From IMG/VR virus record IMGVR_UViG_2563366820_000007: 12,940 bases of DNA, one strand, 5' to 3'. Source of the stretch: a virus. Its lineage: Duplodnaviria > Heunggongvirae > Uroviricota > Caudoviricetes. The notes under the pieces are model-generated. The model saw only the letters and a program-made list of their open reading frames with translations. It had not been told where the DNA came from and searched no databases. Made by a program: the position numbers and the translations under genes. Below are positions 4,322 through 12,184 of this stretch, one piece after another. The stretch's first letter is position 1, and each line of letters begins with the position of its first letter.

Positions 4322-4575
4322 TTACAACTGTCTACCGTATTAATACATCGATAATTAATGATTTTTACTAAATGGTAGACAGTGTAGATAGTTAAAATAA
4401 AAATTTTAAAAATGAACCCATAACTATCTGTTTTTATATACCCCCCCGTGGTTTAGAAATATAAAATAAACTGTCCACCTCTCTACCACATTAAAAATAC
4501 CTATATAATTCAAAACATTAATTAGTAGATGGTTGGTAGAGGGTTAAGTGTATCTGTCTACCAACCGTCTACCTT
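4322..4575. promoter_or_regulatory. AT-rich control region with GTAGAC-containing inverted repeats
   Basis: GGTAGACAGT at 4374-4383 and its reverse complement at 4326-4335, which lies in the 5' leader of the ProQ-like gene. Large inverted repeat GTAGATGGTTGGTAGAG (4524-4540) / CTGTCTACCAACCGTCTACC (4552-4571). Confidence 0.45.
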
Positions 4576-4661
4576 TACGTTTCAGCTTATAAATTTCGTA
4601 TTATGTTCTCCAACGGCGCTGATATAACATTCTGTTTTCATTTTTAACATCCATGATTTTT

Positions 4662-5055
4662 TAATTCCTCACCTGCTGCACAGTGAGAATTTATGAAGTT
4701 AATAACAATATGATTTTAAATATATTTTTAAGCACTCACTTTTTAATCCTTATATATACGCAAAAGTGAGGTAAATAGTTAAGTTTTAGTTAATATCTTG
4801 CATGGTGTGTTTTTTAACCTACCTGTTATTTTTATTACCTCATTTCTATTAACTCACCATTCCTCACTTTTGTTCCTCACTTTTTGTTATTCTTGTTCTG
4901 CTCCTCAGTCGTTTTCTTTATTGTTGTAATATGTTGTTTTGCAATGTGTTTTTAACTCCTCACTTTTTGATCTATATACAGGTGAGAAAGTGAGGAAAAC
5001 AGGGATGATTTTTAAATATTCCCTTCCCCCTCACTTTTACGCCTCACTTTTTACA
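4662..5055. repeat. iteron array, putative origin of replication
   Basis: At least 7 direct copies of CCTCACTTTT(T) at about 4735, 4862, 4875, 4968, 5029 and 5042, with degenerate copies at 4668 and 4838. Inverted copies AAAGTGAGG at 4762 and 4987 and GTGAG at 4683. AT-rich spacers. The last iteron overlaps the rep stop codon (5051-5053). Confidence 0.7.
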
Positions 5056-6979: not shown

Positions 6980-7337
6980 GATGCACCCCCTGAATGACCT
7001 GATAGCCGCAACAGGTCAGCAATTCGATAAATTCCGGTAATGTGCCGAAACAGCAATCATCACGCAGCTGTTCGCGGGATACCTCGACGCCGTTTTCGTA
7101 GTGACTCACCATACGTCCGGTAAAATGCAGATCATCATCGTGATGGCTCGTTGACGGCTTAATCAGTCGCGCACGTTCTGCCAGTTCCAGCAATGCTTCA
7201 ACACTTCCGGCAATTGCACCATCCGGCAGGTGGTAATTACGCACTATGCGCCCATTCTCCACATTGACCAGTAGCTGCCCGGTAAATTTCTCGTCAAACT
7301 GAATGCTGTTAAGGTCAGAAATTGACAGGTTATGCAT
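6972..7337 (-). CDS. hypothetical protein, 121 aa, two tandem FTG modules
   Basis: ATG at 7335-7337 with AGGGGGTAAG upstream. Two internal repeats: FTGQLLVNVENGRIV...SVEALLELAERARLIKP and FTGRMVSHYENGVEV...LPEFIELLTCCGYQV. Overlaps the upstream stop (ATGCATAA). Confidence 0.55.
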   Translation of the reverse strand: MHNLSISDLNSIQFDEKFTGQLLVNVENGRIVRNYHLPDGAIAGSVEALLELAERARLIKPSTSHHDDDLHFTGRMVSHYENGVEVSREQLRDDCCFGTLPEFIELLTCCGYQVIQGVHHG

Positions 7338-7695
7338 GGCTTACCCCCTGACGAATACGGGCGGCGAATACCATCACACAGCCATCAGGAGATTGCTGGC
7401 GTGCTTCCTGTTCGCTGGTGGCCTCGATGTGAATTACACGCGGTTGTGCCGTACTCAGGGCGATAAAACGCCAGATAAAATTGTTCTCGCATTTCTGAAT
7501 AAACAGCGTGTTTTCTTCGCGCCCTTTCCATGTTGCCGAGATATAGCCCATATCATTGAGCATCTCGCAGGCATCCACCAGCGTATCAGCGGCTACGTGT
7601 ACAGTGTTTTTACCGTCAGCCATGCAATCACGGTGCACCGCCAGGAAGGTGTATATAAATTTAGGGTGAGTTTGGGTATGCTGTGTTCCAGCCAT
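7330..7695 (-). CDS. hypothetical protein, 121 aa, first gene of the replication-side operon
   Basis: The track ORF 7330..8466 is trimmed to the ATG at 7693-7695 (MAGTQHTQ...), which has GAGGT 7 nt upstream. Internal duplication KFIYTFLAVHRD / NFIWRFIALSTAQ. Family not recognised. Confidence 0.55.
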   Translation of the reverse strand: MAGTQHTQTHPKFIYTFLAVHRDCMADGKNTVHVAADTLVDACEMLNDMGYISATWKGREENTLFIQKCENNFIWRFIALSTAQPRVIHIEATSEQEARQQSPDGCVMVFAARIRQGVSHA

Positions 7696-7784
7696 AATCG
7701 TTACCTCGTTTAACGGTTTGGTTAGACGCCCCGCTACTGCCGCAAACAGTTCGGGGCGTTGTCGTTTACATCCTCTTACTGAGG

Positions 7785-7882
7785 TGTGATTTAAATTAAA
7801 TTCAACTGAATCACAGGTCAAGTATTTTTTGTGATTCTTTTTTGTGTATACTGAATCACATCTTTTGTTTAGGAGAATGCAC
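7785..7882 (+). promoter_or_regulatory. divergent promoter/operator region
   Basis: Alternating half-sites TGTGATT (7785, 7830) and AATCACA (7810, 7854) at a spacing of about 22 bp. Extended -10 TGTGTATACT at 7842-7851. AGGAGAA ribosome-binding site at 7871-7877 before the ATG at 7883. Confidence 0.5.
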
Positions 7883-8188
7883 ATGGCAAAAAACACTATC
7901 AACGACAAATCAAAACAGATTTCAATTCGTATCCCACATGATGCTTTTGATGGCATGGAATCCGTAAAACTGGACGGCGAAAGCAACGCCGGATTCATAG
8001 TAACCGCCATGCGTGGTGAGATCGCCCGCCGCCAGGCAGAAGGAAGAGGAGAAAACCCCCTGGTTTCTTCGCTTGATGCACTGGCACAGGTGGAAAAAAT
8101 CGGAGTCAAAGCTGCCGAGGAGATCGGGCAGCTCGTCACCGTCGCGCGTGAAGAACTCCAGCGCCGCAAGGCCAAAGAACAGGAGTAG
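7883..8188 (+). CDS. small putative transcriptional regulator, 101 aa
   Basis: The only convincing plus-strand gene; ATG at 7883 with AGGAGA upstream (the track ORF starts earlier on GTG at 7844). Segment KQISIRIPHDAFDGM could be a ribbon-helix-helix-like beta strand followed by helices (weak). Divergent from the rep operon with operator-like repeats in between. Confidence 0.5.
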   Translation: MAKNTINDKSKQISIRIPHDAFDGMESVKLDGESNAGFIVTAMRGEIARRQAEGRGENPLVSSLDALAQVEKIGVKAAEEIGQLVTVAREELQRRKAKEQE

Positions 8189-8458
8189 TTGATCAGCACC
8201 GGGCGACCAGAAAAAATCGTATCAGTCGCGCCACCAGCAAAATTTTTTGCTTTCCGGACGACGTGGCCAACGACATTTTGCAGCAAAATATTCTGCATTT
8301 CTGGCGTGCTGTAGTAACGGTGATCAGCGCCTTCACTCTGTGCGACCACAACGCTATAATCTGCCTCGTAGACAGTAAGCAATATGGTGCTACAGGTAAT
8401 TCGTTCACAAAGGCGCTCCGGCAACGGGGCGCTTTCTCTTTTTGTAACGGTCAGAGCG

Positions 8459-9259
8459 TTACACATGGCTGTTTTCCTCCATGCGACGGGCTAACCAACG
8501 CTGCGAAAGGCGAATTAATTCAGCTTTCCGCTGGTGGTAGTCCTGGCCTAACTCAATCAGCGTGATATTGCTCTGCTCAAGGTAAGAAAGGTGCTCAAGC
8601 TGCAACGTGCTCATGTGGTCGCGTGGTTCGCCTGTAATGCCGTTCGCCAGTGCCCACTGTTTTGCAGTCATGCCGCCCAGCACGATACGCGCCAGCATAT
8701 TGGCTTCCGTGGTGTAATGGTGCTGTAGAGTGTTTTTACCCAGTTCAGCCCGGTACGCCTCCAGCGCGGCACACATTGGCTTAAAGTAGCTGGCAACTGT
8801 GATACGGGCTTTCAGTTCCCGGCGTAACGCTGCGGAACGTACAGGCGCAACCTTGTGTAGCTCTTCCTCGCATTTGATGAAGTACTGACGAACGGCGCGG
8901 CCCTGTTCGGTGCGTTCGACCATCGCCAGTTCTTTCGCCATGTTGATAGTGCTCAGGTAGTCGTGCTCTACACGTTGGCGAGATTTTGCGCTCACCGGAT
9001 TGGGGGAGGTCAAATTTTCTACGAATTCAAAATCCACGCCCTTTTTAAATCCGTACTCATCAATGCGTCCTTTAATCCAGGTTGTGAAATCACGCTTCAC
9101 ACCCAGCGCCTTATGCAACGCTCTGGCGCTAACAATATTGGTTTCACGCCCGCCAATAACGCCGGAAATAACCGGGATAATTTCGCCGAAATTTTGTTGG
9201 CTCTGGTTTTCAGGCCGAACGAATCCCTGCCCCTGTACGGGCGTTTTTCGCAGTTTCAT
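8459..9259 (-). CDS. phage antirepressor-like protein (AntA/KilA-type), 266 aa
   Basis: N-terminal region NIVSARALHKALGVKRDFTTWIKGRIDEYGFKKGVDFEF resembles antirepressor N-domains; C-terminal half is helical. Domain assignment from memory only. Confidence 0.55.
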   Translation of the reverse strand: MKLRKTPVQGQGFVRPENQSQQNFGEIIPVISGVIGGRETNIVSARALHKALGVKRDFTTWIKGRIDEYGFKKGVDFEFVENLTSPNPVSAKSRQRVEHDYLSTINMAKELAMVERTEQGRAVRQYFIKCEEELHKVAPVRSAALRRELKARITVASYFKPMCAALEAYRAELGKNTLQHHYTTEANMLARIVLGGMTAKQWALANGITGEPRDHMSTLQLEHLSYLEQSNITLIELGQDYHQRKAELIRLSQRWLARRMEENSHV

Positions 9260-9337
9260 AAAAACTCCTGCTATCGAATTAAGTTACTTTTTATTTGCTG
9301 GTGGATAGCTGGGACTTCTGGCCCCGTAGCCATTTAA

Positions 9338-9535
9338 TCAGGTAGCTGTTCCGCGTGATTCCGCAATACGCTGATTAATCCACTCGTCAATTTCACTCTC
9401 AACGAAAGCAATCGCTCGCGAGCCAATTTTAACTGATGCAGGAAATTTACCTTGCCCCATAAGGCGATAAATCCATGCCTTGCTATATCCAGTTCTACGC
9501 TGAACTTCCGTTAAACGAATAAGCGTATTTGACAT
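9338..9535 (-). CDS. alpA: AlpA-family transcriptional regulator / excisionase-like protein, 65 aa
   Basis: LTEVQRRTGYSKAWIYRLMGQGKFPASVKIGSRAIAFVESEIDEWI matches the AlpA (Phage_AlpA) pattern. GAGGT sits 4-5 nt upstream of the ATG. Confidence 0.85.
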   Translation of the reverse strand: MSNTLIRLTEVQRRTGYSKAWIYRLMGQGKFPASVKIGSRAIAFVESEIDEWINQRIAESRGTAT

Positions 9536-9602
9536 ATATTTACCTCATAACGTCTACTCAATTTGACGAGGTAATCATGGCACAGAAATAACGAATATTT
9601 TC

Positions 9603-9753
9603 ATACCCTCATGCCTAATGGTAATCGGGAATATTTTTACCCTAAGGGTAATAGTAAAATTGATGGGAAAGCATACAAAAATACCCTAAGGGTGAGGTCT
9701 GATTACCCTTAGGGTGAGACGCGAACAAAACATGAGATACCACTAGGGTAAGG
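9603..9753. promoter_or_regulatory. cluster of palindromic operator-like sites upstream of alpA
   Basis: TTACCCT-A-AGGGTAA at 9637-9651 (perfect 7-bp arms), TACCCTAAGGGTG at 9682-9694, TTACCCTTAGGGTGA at 9703-9717, and degenerate TACCACTAGGGTAA at 9738-9751 and GCCTAATGGTAA at 9612-9623. Confidence 0.65.
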
Positions 9754-9755
9754 CT

Positions 9756-10526
9756 TCATCGTTTGATAGGACAGGCGACAAGCTCAATAGATGCGGCCTG
9801 TCGGGAGGTAAAACCTCGTTTTTCAAGCTCAGTAGTAATCGCGCCCTGGTTTCCCCTGGTTGCGCGATCATTCTCTGGGTCGTAATTGGCCCACTCTCTG
9901 TTTCTAATATCGATAGCCAGATACAATGGGTCATCATCACGATACGCCCTTAGCAAAATCGGGCGCTCCTTTTCTAACTGATTTACCCGCTCCCTTAACG
10001 ATTCATTTTCTTTTTCCAGCATTGCAATTCGGGATAAAAAATCATCATCTGTACGCAACTCTTTATGTTCAATATTGCTTCCTTGCGCCTCGTTATTTTC
10101 AGAAGAGTCAGCACATTCCAGATTCATTAACCCGTCAAGGATTTCTGGGAAAATTTCGAAAATTTCATTTCTTCTGAATCCCATTGCCTCAAATTCGGCA
10201 TCTTCCCAATAACCAGATACCAGAAAACCACTCTCATCCCTCTCACAAGGTAAACAACCACGCTCCCTAACCGTATCCAGTTTTGCATAAAGAAAGTTAA
10301 AATCAGGTCTCCACTCAAACGGATCCGAAGAATAAAGTTCCACCTCATTTAATGAATTTACTGTGTACAGGGTAATACCTGGATTTACTGTATTTATTCT
10401 CTTGAGTATCCAGGTAATGACTTCTGAAATATTAGCATCAACAACTTTAAATACATCATCAAGAAAATCACGTAAATAAATAAACTCTTTTTTATATTCA
10501 TTTAATTCGGCATGAATATCAACCAT
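9756..10526 (-). CDS. hypothetical protein, 256 aa, orphan cargo between int and alpA
   Basis: The track ORF 9756..10607 is trimmed to the ATG at 10524-10526 (MVDIHAELNEYKKEF...). Central coiled-coil-like segment LSRIAMLEKENESLRERVNQLEKERP. The 5' two-thirds of the gene is AT-rich. No family recognised. Confidence 0.55.
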   Translation of the reverse strand: MVDIHAELNEYKKEFIYLRDFLDDVFKVVDANISEVITWILKRINTVNPGITLYTVNSLNEVELYSSDPFEWRPDFNFLYAKLDTVRERGCLPCERDESGFLVSGYWEDAEFEAMGFRRNEIFEIFPEILDGLMNLECADSSENNEAQGSNIEHKELRTDDDFLSRIAMLEKENESLRERVNQLEKERPILLRAYRDDDPLYLAIDIRNREWANYDPENDRATRGNQGAITTELEKRGFTSRQAASIELVACPIKR

Positions 10527-10527
10527 A

Positions 10528-10582
10528 CGCACACCTCTGCGCCCTCTACCGTAGTGGCTGTGCCAGTCCGCAGAGGTGTGCG
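10528..10582 (-). promoter_or_regulatory. perfect 14-bp inverted repeat (hairpin) covering the ribosome-binding site of the 256-aa gene
   Basis: CGCACACCTCTGCG (10528-10541) and CGCAGAGGTGTGCG (10569-10582) separated by 27 nt. In the minus-strand mRNA the 3' arm contains GAGGUG directly upstream of the AUG at 10526. No U-tract follows, so it is not a typical intrinsic terminator. Confidence 0.6.
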
Positions 10583-10653
10583 GATTTTCGGGAGCGACCC
10601 TAGACACAGCCTTTTCTTAATCGCTCAAAGTCTACTACTGTATACTCAACCAG

Positions 10654-11868
10654 TCACCCGCATTTTCCGAACTCACCATGCACCACATTTCCGCCATGCT
10701 CGAGCGAATCCATATAGTCGGCGTACCACTGGAGCATCTCGCGCCGCCCGTCCAGATATTGCGCATGATTGTACGTGCCACGAATTGAGTTCTTATCAAC
10801 GTGTGCAAGCTGCGTTTCTATCCACGCGGTGTTATAGCCCTGCTCATGCAAAATGGTGCTCATGGTGTGCCGGAATCCATGACCAGTAACGCGCCCGGCA
10901 TAGCCGATACGACGAATGAGCACATTCATCGCCATTTCACTCATTGGCTTACTGTGGTGAATACGACCGGGGAAAATAAACTGATACTGGCCTGTCATGT
11001 TTTTTAACTGCTCCAGTATTTTTATCGCCTGTTCTGGTAATGGCACACAATGCGGACGGCGCATCTTCATTCGTTCTTTAGGCACTTCCCACAAACGATT
11101 ATCAAAATCGATCTCCTGCCATTCTGCCTGCCGTAATTCCCCGGGTCTGACACCTGTCAGAATTAATAGCCGCATTGCCAGTTTGACGATCTGGCTTCCG
11201 GTGTACGTATTAAAAACGCGGAAAAATTCCGGCAGTTCGTCGGCCTTCAAATAGGCGTAATGCTCTTTTTTATGTGGAGCAAATGCGCTCACCAGGTCAG
11301 GGGCTGGATTATATTCGGCGCGTCCGGTGATGATTGCGTACCGGAACACCTCGCCGCATCGCTGGCGAACCTTACGCAATTTTTCAGTCGCACCACGGTC
11401 ATTAAGACGGGAAAGAACCGCCAGCAATTCCATCGGCTTAATTTCTGCGATCGGCCTACCGCCAATGTACGGAAAAACATCTTTTTCAAACGTCTCGATC
11501 ATTTCCTCGGCGTATGACGATGACCACCTGTCGATCCGCTTTTCGTACCATTCGCGAGCAATACCCTCAAAAGTATTGCCAAATTTGCTCGCCTGTTCTC
11601 GCTTTTGGGCTTTTCTGGCCTCACTTGGATTTATACCACCAGCAAGAAGCCTTTTAGCCTCATCCCTTGCCGCCCTGGCATCAGACAGAGACACATCAGG
11701 GTATACCCCCAACGACAACATTTTGGGCTTTCCTGCAAACCTGTAGCGCAGTCGCCACCCTTTCGAACCGTTCGGCTCAATGAGCAACGAAAGCCCGTTA
11801 CCGTCATTGAGTGTATAAGCCTTTTCTTTCGGCTTCGCGCGCCTGATGGCAAGGTCTGAAAGCAGCAT
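10654..11868 (-). CDS. int: P4-family tyrosine integrase, about 405 aa
   Basis: N-terminus MLLSDLAIRRAKPKEKAYTLNDGNGLSLLIEPNGSKGWRLRYRFAGKPK is a typical P4-type integrase arm-binding domain. C-terminus carries HGFRHT and RGTYNHAQY catalytic motifs. Adjacent to a tRNA gene. Start at ATG 11866-11868; an upstream in-frame ATG at 11907 is also possible. Confidence 0.9.
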   Translation of the reverse strand: MLLSDLAIRRAKPKEKAYTLNDGNGLSLLIEPNGSKGWRLRYRFAGKPKMLSLGVYPDVSLSDARAARDEAKRLLAGGINPSEARKAQKREQASKFGNTFEGIAREWYEKRIDRWSSSYAEEMIETFEKDVFPYIGGRPIAEIKPMELLAVLSRLNDRGATEKLRKVRQRCGEVFRYAIITGRAEYNPAPDLVSAFAPHKKEHYAYLKADELPEFFRVFNTYTGSQIVKLAMRLLILTGVRPGELRQAEWQEIDFDNRLWEVPKERMKMRRPHCVPLPEQAIKILEQLKNMTGQYQFIFPGRIHHSKPMSEMAMNVLIRRIGYAGRVTGHGFRHTMSTILHEQGYNTAWIETQLAHVDKNSIRGTYNHAQYLDGRREMLQWYADYMDSLEHGGNVVHGEFGKCG

Positions 11869-11962
11869 GTGTATAGCTCCAAAAAATAAATTTTGTCCTA
11901 TACGCATTACTATACACTTCTGTGTGTAGATTCTGGTAGTTGTGAGTAGACGTTAATAAGCT

Positions 11963-12019
11963 ATGAAAATGGCTGGAAGGCTTGATATTCGTGGGTTTGA
12001 TGGACTTTAGTAGACGTTG
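11963..12019. repeat. direct repeats TGAGTAGACGTT / AGTAGACGTT near attL (candidate arm-type or recombination-directionality-factor binding sites)
   Basis: TGAGTAGACGTT at 11963-11974 and TAGTAGACGTTG at 12008-12019, between the int start and the tRNA 3' end. An exact inverted copy of the 12-mer lies at 9549-9560 in the alpA leader. Confidence 0.5.
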
Positions 12020-12032
12020 AGAAATGTTTGTT

Positions 12033-12106
12033 TGGAGCGGGCGAAGGGAATCGAACCCTCGTATAGAGCTTGGGAAGCTCTCGTTCTACCATTGAACTAC
12101 GCCCGC
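12033..12106 (-). tRNA. glyU: tRNA-Gly (anticodon CCC)
   Basis: The reverse complement reads GCGGGCGTAGTTCAATGGTAGAACGAGAGCTTCCCAAGCTCTATACGAGGGTTCGATTCCCTTCGCCCGCTCCA (74 nt), with cloverleaf arms and anticodon loop TTCCCAA. Matches E. coli glyU as I recall it. Confidence 0.9.
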
Positions 12107-12184
12107 TTCGAGATGCGTAAGGCATTATAAACCTTACGCTCTCCTTAGCAAGTGCCGCGCTGCTGACTGCTGATTAATTCGCCA

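Follow-up and report, generated by a model that had tools for sequence, protein, structure and literature searches.

The DNA analysed here (IMG/VR record IMGVR_UViG_2563366820_000007; 12,940 nucleotides, hereafter the window) is E. coli DNA in which a short motif with the core GTAGAC recurs around the integrase gene int and the regulatory gene alpA. This motif is probably the recognition half-site of AlpA, a protein that would drive excision from sites at the int-proximal end of the element (attL) and exert regulation near its own gene. The same explanation, taken as a whole and held with the same confidence, has the window contain the int-proximal end of a phage satellite of about 13 kb, of the phage-inducible chromosomal island (PICI)/P4-like kind, inserted in the tRNA-Gly(CCC) gene glyU beside actS/ygeR. 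The copies at attL are most likely sites for AlpA acting as recombination directionality factor (RDF) and not arm sites of the integrase, because the motif is constant across integrase types and because islands with other RDFs carry other half-sites.

The exact 12-mer TGAGTAGACGTT is found in the window at 11943-11954 (+) and, inverted, at 9549-9560 (−) in the leader of alpA, and an 11/12 copy, TTAGTAGACGTT, lies at 12007-12018 (+). The match between the leader copy and the copy at 11943 extends to the 13-mer TGAGTAGACGTTA, and a fourth, weaker copy, AGTAGACTTT, is present at 10627-10636 (−), 19 nt past the int stop codon. The initial annotation had located the inverted copy correctly, had the 11/12 copy one base off (12008-12019) and placed the exact direct copy 20 bases away from its true position, at 11963-11974. 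It had also held that such a triple is unlikely by chance in 13 kb, which does not hold: a 12-mer that recurs once exactly and once more at ≤1 mismatch turns up in 57% of 200 dinucleotide-preserving shuffles, and ~18 unrelated 12-mers are also repeated within the window. A shuffle test with the motif specified in advance (1/200 shuffles) is post hoc, and the significance of the triple by counting alone was dropped, equivalent triples being common in shuffles. Since counting gives no support, the case for function rests on placement and on comparison with relatives; the motif is real by these two measures and not by its count. All motif copies sit in non-coding DNA of the int-alpA module. A literature search with the motif string returned primers only.

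At attL the motif belongs to two blocks of half-sites, both predicted AlpA (RDF) sites. Block A (12000-12019, +), 14-33 bp from the tRNA 3' end, consists of ATGGAC (12000-12005) and GTAGAC (12010-12015), 10 bp apart. Block B (11926-11954, +), offset from block A by 64 bp, consists of GTAGAT (11926-11931), GTAGTT (11936-11941) and GTAGAC (11946-11951) in exact 10-bp phase, and all half-sites of both blocks have one orientation. The two blocks lie between the tRNA core (12033) and a separate set of CTATACAC repeats (11898-11917), and this order, from core through blocks to arm repeats, is the same in 70 aligned unique arms, in KplE1 and in P4. Block B abuts the inferred −35 element of int, which by eye reads CCAGAA, with a −10 element TATAGT, in the window and TTGAAA-18-TACATT in relatives.

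The comparison set comprised 80 loci with AlpA relatives (68-87% identical, from Enterobacterales genomes), picked by AlpA similarity, and 80 viral contigs with related integrases; individual loci are given L numbers below. In almost all fetched loci ~165 bp separate the tRNA from int, and GTCTAC (the hexamer as read along the genes) recurs there at two constant locations. The 70 aligned unique arms resolve into two sharp blocks, the first beginning 17-27 bp past the tRNA end (consensus taacGTCTact.AAGTc) and the second ~64 bp further in (AcGTCTAcT.acgTctatTgaAATCtAca). In the 200 bp upstream of int, 84 loci contain 106 GTCTAC against 1 GTAGAC in the gene direction, where ~3-4 are expected per orientation. 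Among unique arms with this AlpA subfamily, the hexamer is present in block A in ~90 of 104 and in block B in ~77 of 104, and both attL positions are kept in ~100 distinct related islands. The sequences show directly where the sites lie, how they are phased and oriented and how well they are conserved, and also that they do not depend on the integrase type: the motif is unchanged over tRNA-Gly, Thr, Arg(tct), Arg(cct), Leu and Phe targets and over Int identities of 37-100%. The window stops short of attR; on the attR arms of L001, L002 and L003, which are near-identical or related islands, there is no exact motif and at most one 1-mismatch hexamer.

The integrase arm-type repeat of these islands is a different sequence. 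In the window, a doubled repeat with a 12-bp period (11898-11917, +) is made up of CTATACGC (11898-11905) and CTATACAC (11910-11917), and a third, inverted repeat, GTGTATAG (11869-11876, +), lies directly upstream of the int start codon (ATG 11868, − strand). Every island, whatever its arm type, has this layout of two direct repeats and one inverted repeat beside the int start, and so does P4, in which the equivalent repeats, those of the two arms as well as the copy where int begins, bear the annotation attP arm repeats; in KplE1 the doubled repeat is matched by the IntS P' sites. On the attR arm of L001 the doubled repeat occurs twice (9641-9664), and the attR arms of L001, L002 and L003 all carry it without GTCTAC. 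Its sequence is CTATACAC/GTGTATAG in the window, GGGGGTA in Thr and Arg types, GGGGCAT in Leu and Phe types, GACGGTAT in L021 and TAGGCCCA in CP4-57, and it tracks the N-terminal (arm-binding) sequence of Int, not the tRNA specificity. For example, L024 and L059, at tRNA-Arg, have the window-type Int N-terminus together with the GTGTATAG repeat, and L007 and L010, at tRNA-Gly-ccc, have an MKLNARQVDT N-terminus together with GGGGGTA. The arm-binding domain and the doubled repeat swap independently of the catalytic domain and of tRNA specificity, which is domain shuffling among P4-like integrases. An arm-type site is recognised by its presence on both arms and its variation with the Int N-terminal domain, and the doubled repeats have both properties, whereas GTAGAC has neither. 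On comparative sequence evidence, the arm-type site of the integrase is thus the doubled repeat, and the motif, which does not vary with the Int arm domain, is not one.

The same distinction bears on the doubled attP motif of helper-embedded PICIs (HE-PICIs; tgTGTATTGCa x2; Mageeney et al. 2023, PMC10111431), which is a tandem repeat of 12-bp period located 81 and 132 bp from the core, on both sides. The doubled repeats of the window type (CTATACAC) and of the GGGGGTA type lie at similar distances, ~60-80 and 115-135 bp from the core, and the HE-PICI motif corresponds to this integrase arm-type repeat and not to the GTAGAC motif. Its binder was left open between Int and AlpA (PMC10111431); the covariation described above points to Int.

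AlpA (65 residues; 9338-9535, −), the proposed binder of the motif, is a winged-helix protein of the Phage_AlpA / HTH_17 type (Pfam E = 2.4e-19; PHROGs 'excisionase and transcriptional regulator'), scoring 69.4 bits against Pfam PF05930 with a cut-off of 21. By sequence it matches PDB entry 8c3t ('AlpA family'/GIsul2 excisionase; E = 1.4e-4) and is distantly similar to TorI, and the top matches to its modelled fold (mean pLDDT 72.6) are 8c3t, TorI (1z4h), RdfS and BldC, which all have the MerR-like winged helix in common with it. Its helix-turn-helix is essentially invariant across the 68 unique homologues that share the motif. Of these proteins, BldC is described as binding direct repeats (PMC5859096), and the same is described for RDFs in general (PMC7498355). 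An AlpA-family protein is required for int-dependent excision in EcCICFT073 and in PICMI (PMC6092414, PMC10803314), and also for excision of CP4So, where its overproduction induces excision as well (PMC5148205). Mapped DNA targets of AlpA were not found in the literature searched.

The distribution of half-sites points to AlpA as the likely binder. In E. coli islands with TorI, Vis, CP4-57 AlpA or EcCICFT073 AlpA, the half-sites are replaced by others and the layout is kept. Two close Int relatives are without the exact motif: in L105 no AlpA was detected, and the sole AlpA-like protein of L138 is TorI-like (27% identity to AlpA). The sites also share several properties with RDF sites, in that they occupy one arm between the core and the arm-type sites, form 10-bp-phased direct repeats in one orientation, are absent from attR and have a specificity that follows the RDF. 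Of the two binders put forward in the initial annotation, AlpA as directionality factor stays the best candidate once the integrase arm domain is rejected, the motif being constant over four Int N-terminal types and six tRNA targets and absent from the attR arm.

Two other lines of comparison were set aside. Relatives of CP4-57 AlpA all carry IntA-like integrases and so give no decoupling of RDF from Int. The Pseudomonas aeruginosa antiterminator AlpA and its element ABE (GGGACG) share only the name, the protein being an unrelated Q-like one; it has eight helices, contacts DNA at residues 128-142 and loads onto paused RNA polymerase, with ABE between −35 and −10. AlpA of the window, in contrast, is a 65-residue PF05930 protein, and the motif does not lie between −35 and −10.

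The closest counterpart to the attL arrangement is KplE1 (CPS-53), an element with a P4-like integrase beside a tRNA gene (E. coli argW; IntS/TorI; Panis et al. 2010, PMC2951348), and the Int of the window is 45% identical to its IntS. In KplE1, GTTCG..GTCCG is followed 63 bp on by GTTCG-N5-GTTCG-N5-GATCG and then by the IntS P' sites, so that the TorI sites I1;2 correspond to block A and I3;4;5 to block B. Both elements thus have a block of two half-sites by the core and a block of three by the int −35, putative in the window, with an offset of 63 bp in KplE1 and 64 bp in the window, and both have arm-type sites (two direct and one inverted) between the second block and the int start. The TorI sites were functionally defined by mutation, and mutation of I3-5 abolishes TorI repression of PintS (PMC2951348). 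The KplE1 sites are hence experimental where those of the window are predicted, and further differences are the half-site itself (GTTCG/GTCCG/GATCG, not GTAGAC), the position of torI at the far end of the prophage with no motif copy reported in front of it, and the standing of TorI outside Pfam Phage_AlpA, with only a sub-threshold HTH_17 match.

P4 resembles the window in its attP layout: the arm repeats are doubled on each arm, a further, inverted one stands where int begins, and half-sites lie in the stretch from these repeats to the core. The P4 half-site, (G/A)TCCG, occupies the same places as the blocks here by our own reading of the P4 sequence, as distinct from published Vis footprints. 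The vis leader carries an inverted arm half-site (CGGACGGAC..ATCCGG), as the alpA leader does. Vis, an AlpA-family excisionase and regulator of late promoters with which Polo 1996 and Cali 2004 reportedly deal, is a single small protein. As cited in PMC7286903 and PMC6092414, excision requires Vis, which has the int region as a target and controls its own promoter, PLL; it is only remotely related to PICI AlpA (PMC6092414). P4 differs in its CI/C4-type immunity RNA and in having helper-dependent late promoters.

In CP4-57, GTCC(T/G)AAGAG occurs twice, 64 bp apart. EcCICFT073 (L184; Fillol-Salom et al. 2018, PMC6092414) belongs to the same class of island as the element in the window, with int, alpA, a replication module with ori iterons, and packaging genes. 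Its int-proximal arm contains GTTTCA/GTTCCA arrays, and five inverted TGAAAC/GGAAC repeats in 10-bp phase stand directly past int (9770-9860 and 11185-11245 in L184); these arrays are candidate AlpA sites of that island, and their arrangement parallels that of the attL blocks and of the inverted copy past int in the window. It differs in the identity of its AlpA (36%) and Int (26%) and in not lying in a tRNA gene. Binding sites of EcCICFT073 AlpA were not found in the literature searched. In CFT073, the island adjoins a lambdoid prophage. A more remote parallel is provided by 186 Apl and P2 Cox, the dual-purpose RDFs and regulators of P2-like phages. These small proteins bind direct repeats in helical phase, located at att as well as in a promoter region, and couple excision to a regulatory switch (PMC7498355). 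They differ in belonging to an unrelated protein family with an unrelated integrase clade, and their sites lie between divergent pR-pL and not in a leader.

Beyond attL, copies of the motif are found between int and alpA. The initial annotation had overlooked a site that is better conserved than the leader copy, just past int and upstream of the int-alpA RNA. In the window this site C (AGTAGACTTT; 10627-10636, −) lies 16 nt upstream of the RNA and in opposite orientation to blocks A and B. Its counterpart in most relatives is a tandem GTAGAC-N4-GTAGAC, mostly at +32/+42 from the int stop and preceding the int-alpA RNA by 13-19 nt. Over all loci, the stretch from the int stop to alpA contains 74 GTAGAC against 8 GTCTAC. 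The int-alpA RNA itself (Rfam RF02996; 10543-10610, −) was detected by cmscan with 48.4 bits against a gathering score of 35.8, and in 11 relatives a match to the same family comes straight after the paired GTAGAC. In the window, the second hairpin of the RNA (arm 10569-10581) has a CACCUCU loop, the complement of AGAGGUG at 10529-10541. As AGAGGUG is where the Shine-Dalgarno sequence of the following open reading frame of 256 codons lies, this looks like an anti-Shine-Dalgarno/Shine-Dalgarno switch for that frame.

In the alpA leader, site D (9549-9560, −) is the exact inverted TGAGTAGACGTT. It adjoins the Shine-Dalgarno sequence on the 5' side, 13 nt ahead of the alpA ATG (9535), and is unchanged in L002 and L003, islands with a different (Thr-type) integrase. 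Across 75 unique leaders the hexamer has a density of 3.5 per kb, against a background of 0.15 per kb downstream of alpA (~23-fold), and it occurs in both orientations and at different positions by subgroup, which favours a DNA site. Just upstream of site D there is, by eye, an extended −10-like TGnCATGAT (TGCCATGAT), and site D is probably downstream of the promoter. RNAfold predicts a leader hairpin, ACCUCGU(N17)AUGAGGU (9542-9572, −), which pairs the alpA Shine-Dalgarno sequence and holds site D in its loop. Stems of 7-12 bp and differing sequence are likewise predicted in ~30 of 70 unique leaders (for example CUCGUAA/UUACGAG, CUCCUGUAG/CUACAGGAG and GCACCUCA/UGAGGUGC). A global test of Shine-Dalgarno pairing gave a modest result, 71% against 58% in shuffles, and RNAalifold on 20 leaders found no consensus structure, two stem classes aligning out of register. 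Further up, four 15-nt palindromic boxes (TACCCTAAGGGTnAn; 9638-9752) upstream of the alpA promoter region are kept in L002 (14100-14220) and are a probable operator for some regulator, perhaps the target of a helper-phage inducer.

Conservation is weaker at the leader copy than at attL, and autoregulation of alpA at this site is plausible but unproven. EcCICFT073 AlpA activates its own promoter (PMC6092414). The proposal in the initial annotation that one protein couples excision to alpA autoregulation is partly supported: by the comparison, one protein appears to recognise sites at both places, as P4 Vis is known to do and in a manner resembling KplE1 TorI, and the autoregulatory part stands less firmly. 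Coupling to alpA regulation, by way of the leader copy and of the conserved site ahead of the int-alpA RNA, is likewise plausible, though unproven. It is also conceivable, but rather improbable, that the AlpA boxes at RF02996 and at the leader hairpin make up an AlpA-operated RNA switch, in which AlpA would control transcription of the structured leaders or bind them directly and so time excision, alpA translation and satellite induction. If so, this would be a first function for RF02996 and a post-transcriptional account of AlpA 'autoactivation'.

In the mechanism we propose, the AlpA half-site would have the core GTAGAC and the extended form T(G/T)AGTAGACGTT. Once the helper phage turns on alpA, AlpA would fill blocks A and B head to tail and bend the arm, after which Int, bound at its own arm sites (the CTATACAC repeats), could gain access to the core for assembly of the excisive complex. 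Damping of int transcription might be a by-product. AlpA at site C and at the leader copy would feed back on the transcription unit of int-alpA RNA, open reading frame and alpA. That AlpA is the binder is inferred, as are the bending and excision role and any autoregulation with its sign.

Several observations weigh against this explanation. The assignments of sites to AlpA are all comparative, and with loci selected by AlpA similarity another co-inherited island factor might in principle be responsible. Only two negative cases are available, L105 and L138, and the distal part of block B, TCTATTGAAATCTAC, persists in both; part of block B may thus serve the promoter (−35 TTGAAA) or another factor. 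Islands with other RDFs differ in their integrase too, and the decoupling rests on Int swaps within the subfamily. Positions relative to promoters were assigned by eye, and a scan for consensus sigma-70 promoters over 9300-12120 called none. At the leader, site D is a single strong half-site whose neighbour, TTTGAC, matches at only 3/6 positions, many relatives have ATAGAC at the leader copy, the hairpin stem constrains part of the flank, and the CP4-57 leader is without that island's own arm motif. Lastly, EcCICFT073 AlpA had no effect on a Pint fusion (PMC6092414).

Four other explanations of the motif can be weighed against these data. The copies occupy the arm that runs from int to the core, the usual place of arm-type sites, and Int has an Arm-DNA-bind_3 domain, so that they might be bound by the Int N-terminal domain, with the leader copy allowing Int to regulate alpA. 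This is extremely improbable given that the motif stays invariant over four Int N-terminal types while a different doubled repeat switches with them, that this doubled repeat is present on the attR arms from which the motif is missing, that doubled repeats are the Int sites in P4 and KplE1, and that islands whose Int is of the Thr type have the same leader copy. A host architectural or regulatory protein aiding recombination, such as IHF or Fis, has some precedent in the IHF sites of the P4 and PAI-I536 int regulatory regions (PMC7286903), and the persistence of the block B part TTGAAATC in L138, with only its TorI-like protein of 27% identity, and in L105, with no AlpA detected, would be in keeping with it. 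We nonetheless regard it as highly improbable, as other islands in the same host species have different half-sites at the same positions and as the motif recurs near alpA and past int, outside the recombination site. GTCTAC is, moreover, unlike the IHF or Fis consensus (WATCAANNNNTTR).

The choice of loci by AlpA similarity confounds AlpA with co-inherited genes, and another island protein could in principle be the binder, for example the product of the 256/283-residue open reading frame between int and alpA, which has a weak leucine-zipper-like match, or an AntA/Bro-type protein. Xenorhabdus and Photorhabdus loci, in which alpA follows int after 136-320 bp with no open reading frame between, keep the blocks, and the modules downstream of alpA are mosaic among the islands sharing the motif, which makes this very improbable. 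An explanation that is unlikely but deserves more weight accepts the attL copies as RDF sites and has the leader copy act, if at all, as RNA, in the loop of a hairpin that hides the alpA ribosome-binding site and that a trans-acting RNA, or AlpA itself if it binds RNA, could open, or else be a chance or inherited match. It draws on the location of the copy in the loop of ACCUCGU/AUGAGGU and the 7-12-bp stems of different sequence in relatives, on the extended −10-like element just upstream, which would have the site transcribed, on the commonness of repeated 12-mers by chance, and on a proposal, cited by Panis et al. (PMC2951348), that P4 Vis binds int mRNA. The ~23-fold enrichment in leaders, in both orientations and at varied places, is not something an RNA loop motif would tolerate, and the overall signal for Shine-Dalgarno pairing is weak (71% against 58% in shuffles). 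AlpA as the binder of one half-site at attL and near alpA remains the probable explanation.

The genetic setting is that of a PICI. The integration target, tRNA-Gly(CCC) or glyU (12033-12106, −; ARAGORN, Rfam tRNA), contains the att core as an identity block at its 3' end (TGGAGCGGGCGAAGGGAA; 12033-12050), and a degenerate second copy of this 3' end, TGGAGCGGCGAAGGGAA, lies at 9566-9583 at the far end of L001. L001 (strain SA31-1) has an int-alpA module near-identical to that of the window, spans ~13.2 kb and closes at this degenerate copy. The attR copy in L001 carries a 1-nt deletion (TGGAGCGG-CGAAGGGAA), comparable to the 'tRNA fragment damage' described in PMC10111431, and four CGTAGT repeats with 11-12-bp spacing are found ~190 bp inside attR (9766-9800).

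After the tRNA, the minus strand encodes in order int, the int-alpA RNA, the 256-residue open reading frame, alpA, an AntA-type gene, an Icd-like gene and a RepA-type helicase, the last accompanied by CCTCACTTT ori iterons. The int gene (10654-11868, −) encodes a P4-like tyrosine integrase (Arm-DNA-bind_3 + Phage_int_M + Phage_integrase; Pfam, PHROGs and L001 annotation), with its start taken at MLLSDL, as annotated in relatives. The 256-residue frame, between the int-alpA RNA and alpA, starts at an ATG at 10526 and has the weak leucine-zipper-like match mentioned above. Further along the same strand come genes for ProQ, PerC, DUF2213/protease-like and terS-like products, and the window also holds a DUF4222 gene. 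Gram-negative PICIs have such a gene order (PMC6092414, PMC10111431); they measure ~10-15 kb, carry mostly co-oriented int, alpA, replicase, ori iterons and packaging-related genes and have no complete set of virion genes, and the island agrees with them in size and gene content. The family is mosaic, the same alpA module occurring with a different integrase at thrW in L002 and L003, and the best E. coli matches to the window are themselves mosaic, at 93-95% identity.

Some features of the window touch on its annotation and immunity. An open reading frame of 378 codons at 7330-8466 (−) is probably spurious, as relatives annotate the Icd-like gene (7330-7695) in its 3' part; on the opposite strand they annotate a YlcI/YnfO-family gene (7844-8188). 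In many relatives (L011, L022, L026, L031), isrK and C4 antisense RNAs, the immunity RNAs of P4 type, occur ~1.1-2.2 kb downstream of alpA. No match to isrK/C4 RNA was found in the window at E <= 0.1, so RNA immunity of the P4 type may be missing from this island.

All nine exact GTAGAC/GTCTAC hexamers of the window are non-coding, which initially suggested a single regulon. Four of them, at 4330-4567, were not counted as AlpA sites, since they have other flanks (ctGTCTACC/GGTAGAC) and form a separate repeat family. Similar repeats serve as ori iterons in islands that have a DUF5906 primase (L003, 7580-7850), whereas islands whose replicase is of another type do not have them. Two iteron-like families lie downstream of the RepA helicase gene, ctGTCTACC/GGTAGAC at 4325-4573 and CCTCACTTT, shared with the RepA-type L002, at 4660-5052, which suggests a mosaic or a relic second origin; AlpA binding at the GTCTACC repeats is conceivable. 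Elsewhere, six or seven TTGACACTTTTTCGCG-like repeats in both orientations, interleaved with CCTTAAnAAAnCTTA repeats, occupy 943-1221 upstream of the terS-like open reading frame (1233-1757), a region that may be involved in packaging (pac/cos-like) or regulation.

The arrangement proposed here, with excisionase sites at att and near the excisionase's own gene, is already established by P4 Vis and KplE1 TorI, and the paradigm is unchanged. AlpA is the master switch of Gram-negative phage satellites, including PICIs, PICMIs and P4-like elements, and the conserved, oriented and integrase-independent box predicted for it (AACGTCTACT) in ~100 distinct islands provides a concrete and testable operator that can serve in assays of excision and induction. 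The comparison separates the putative RDF sites from the integrase arm sites, a question that had been left open for the HE-PICI doubled attP motif, and it ties the orphan int-alpA RNA motif to the same putative regulon as the AlpA box. The box could also help to annotate att arms and satellite boundaries.

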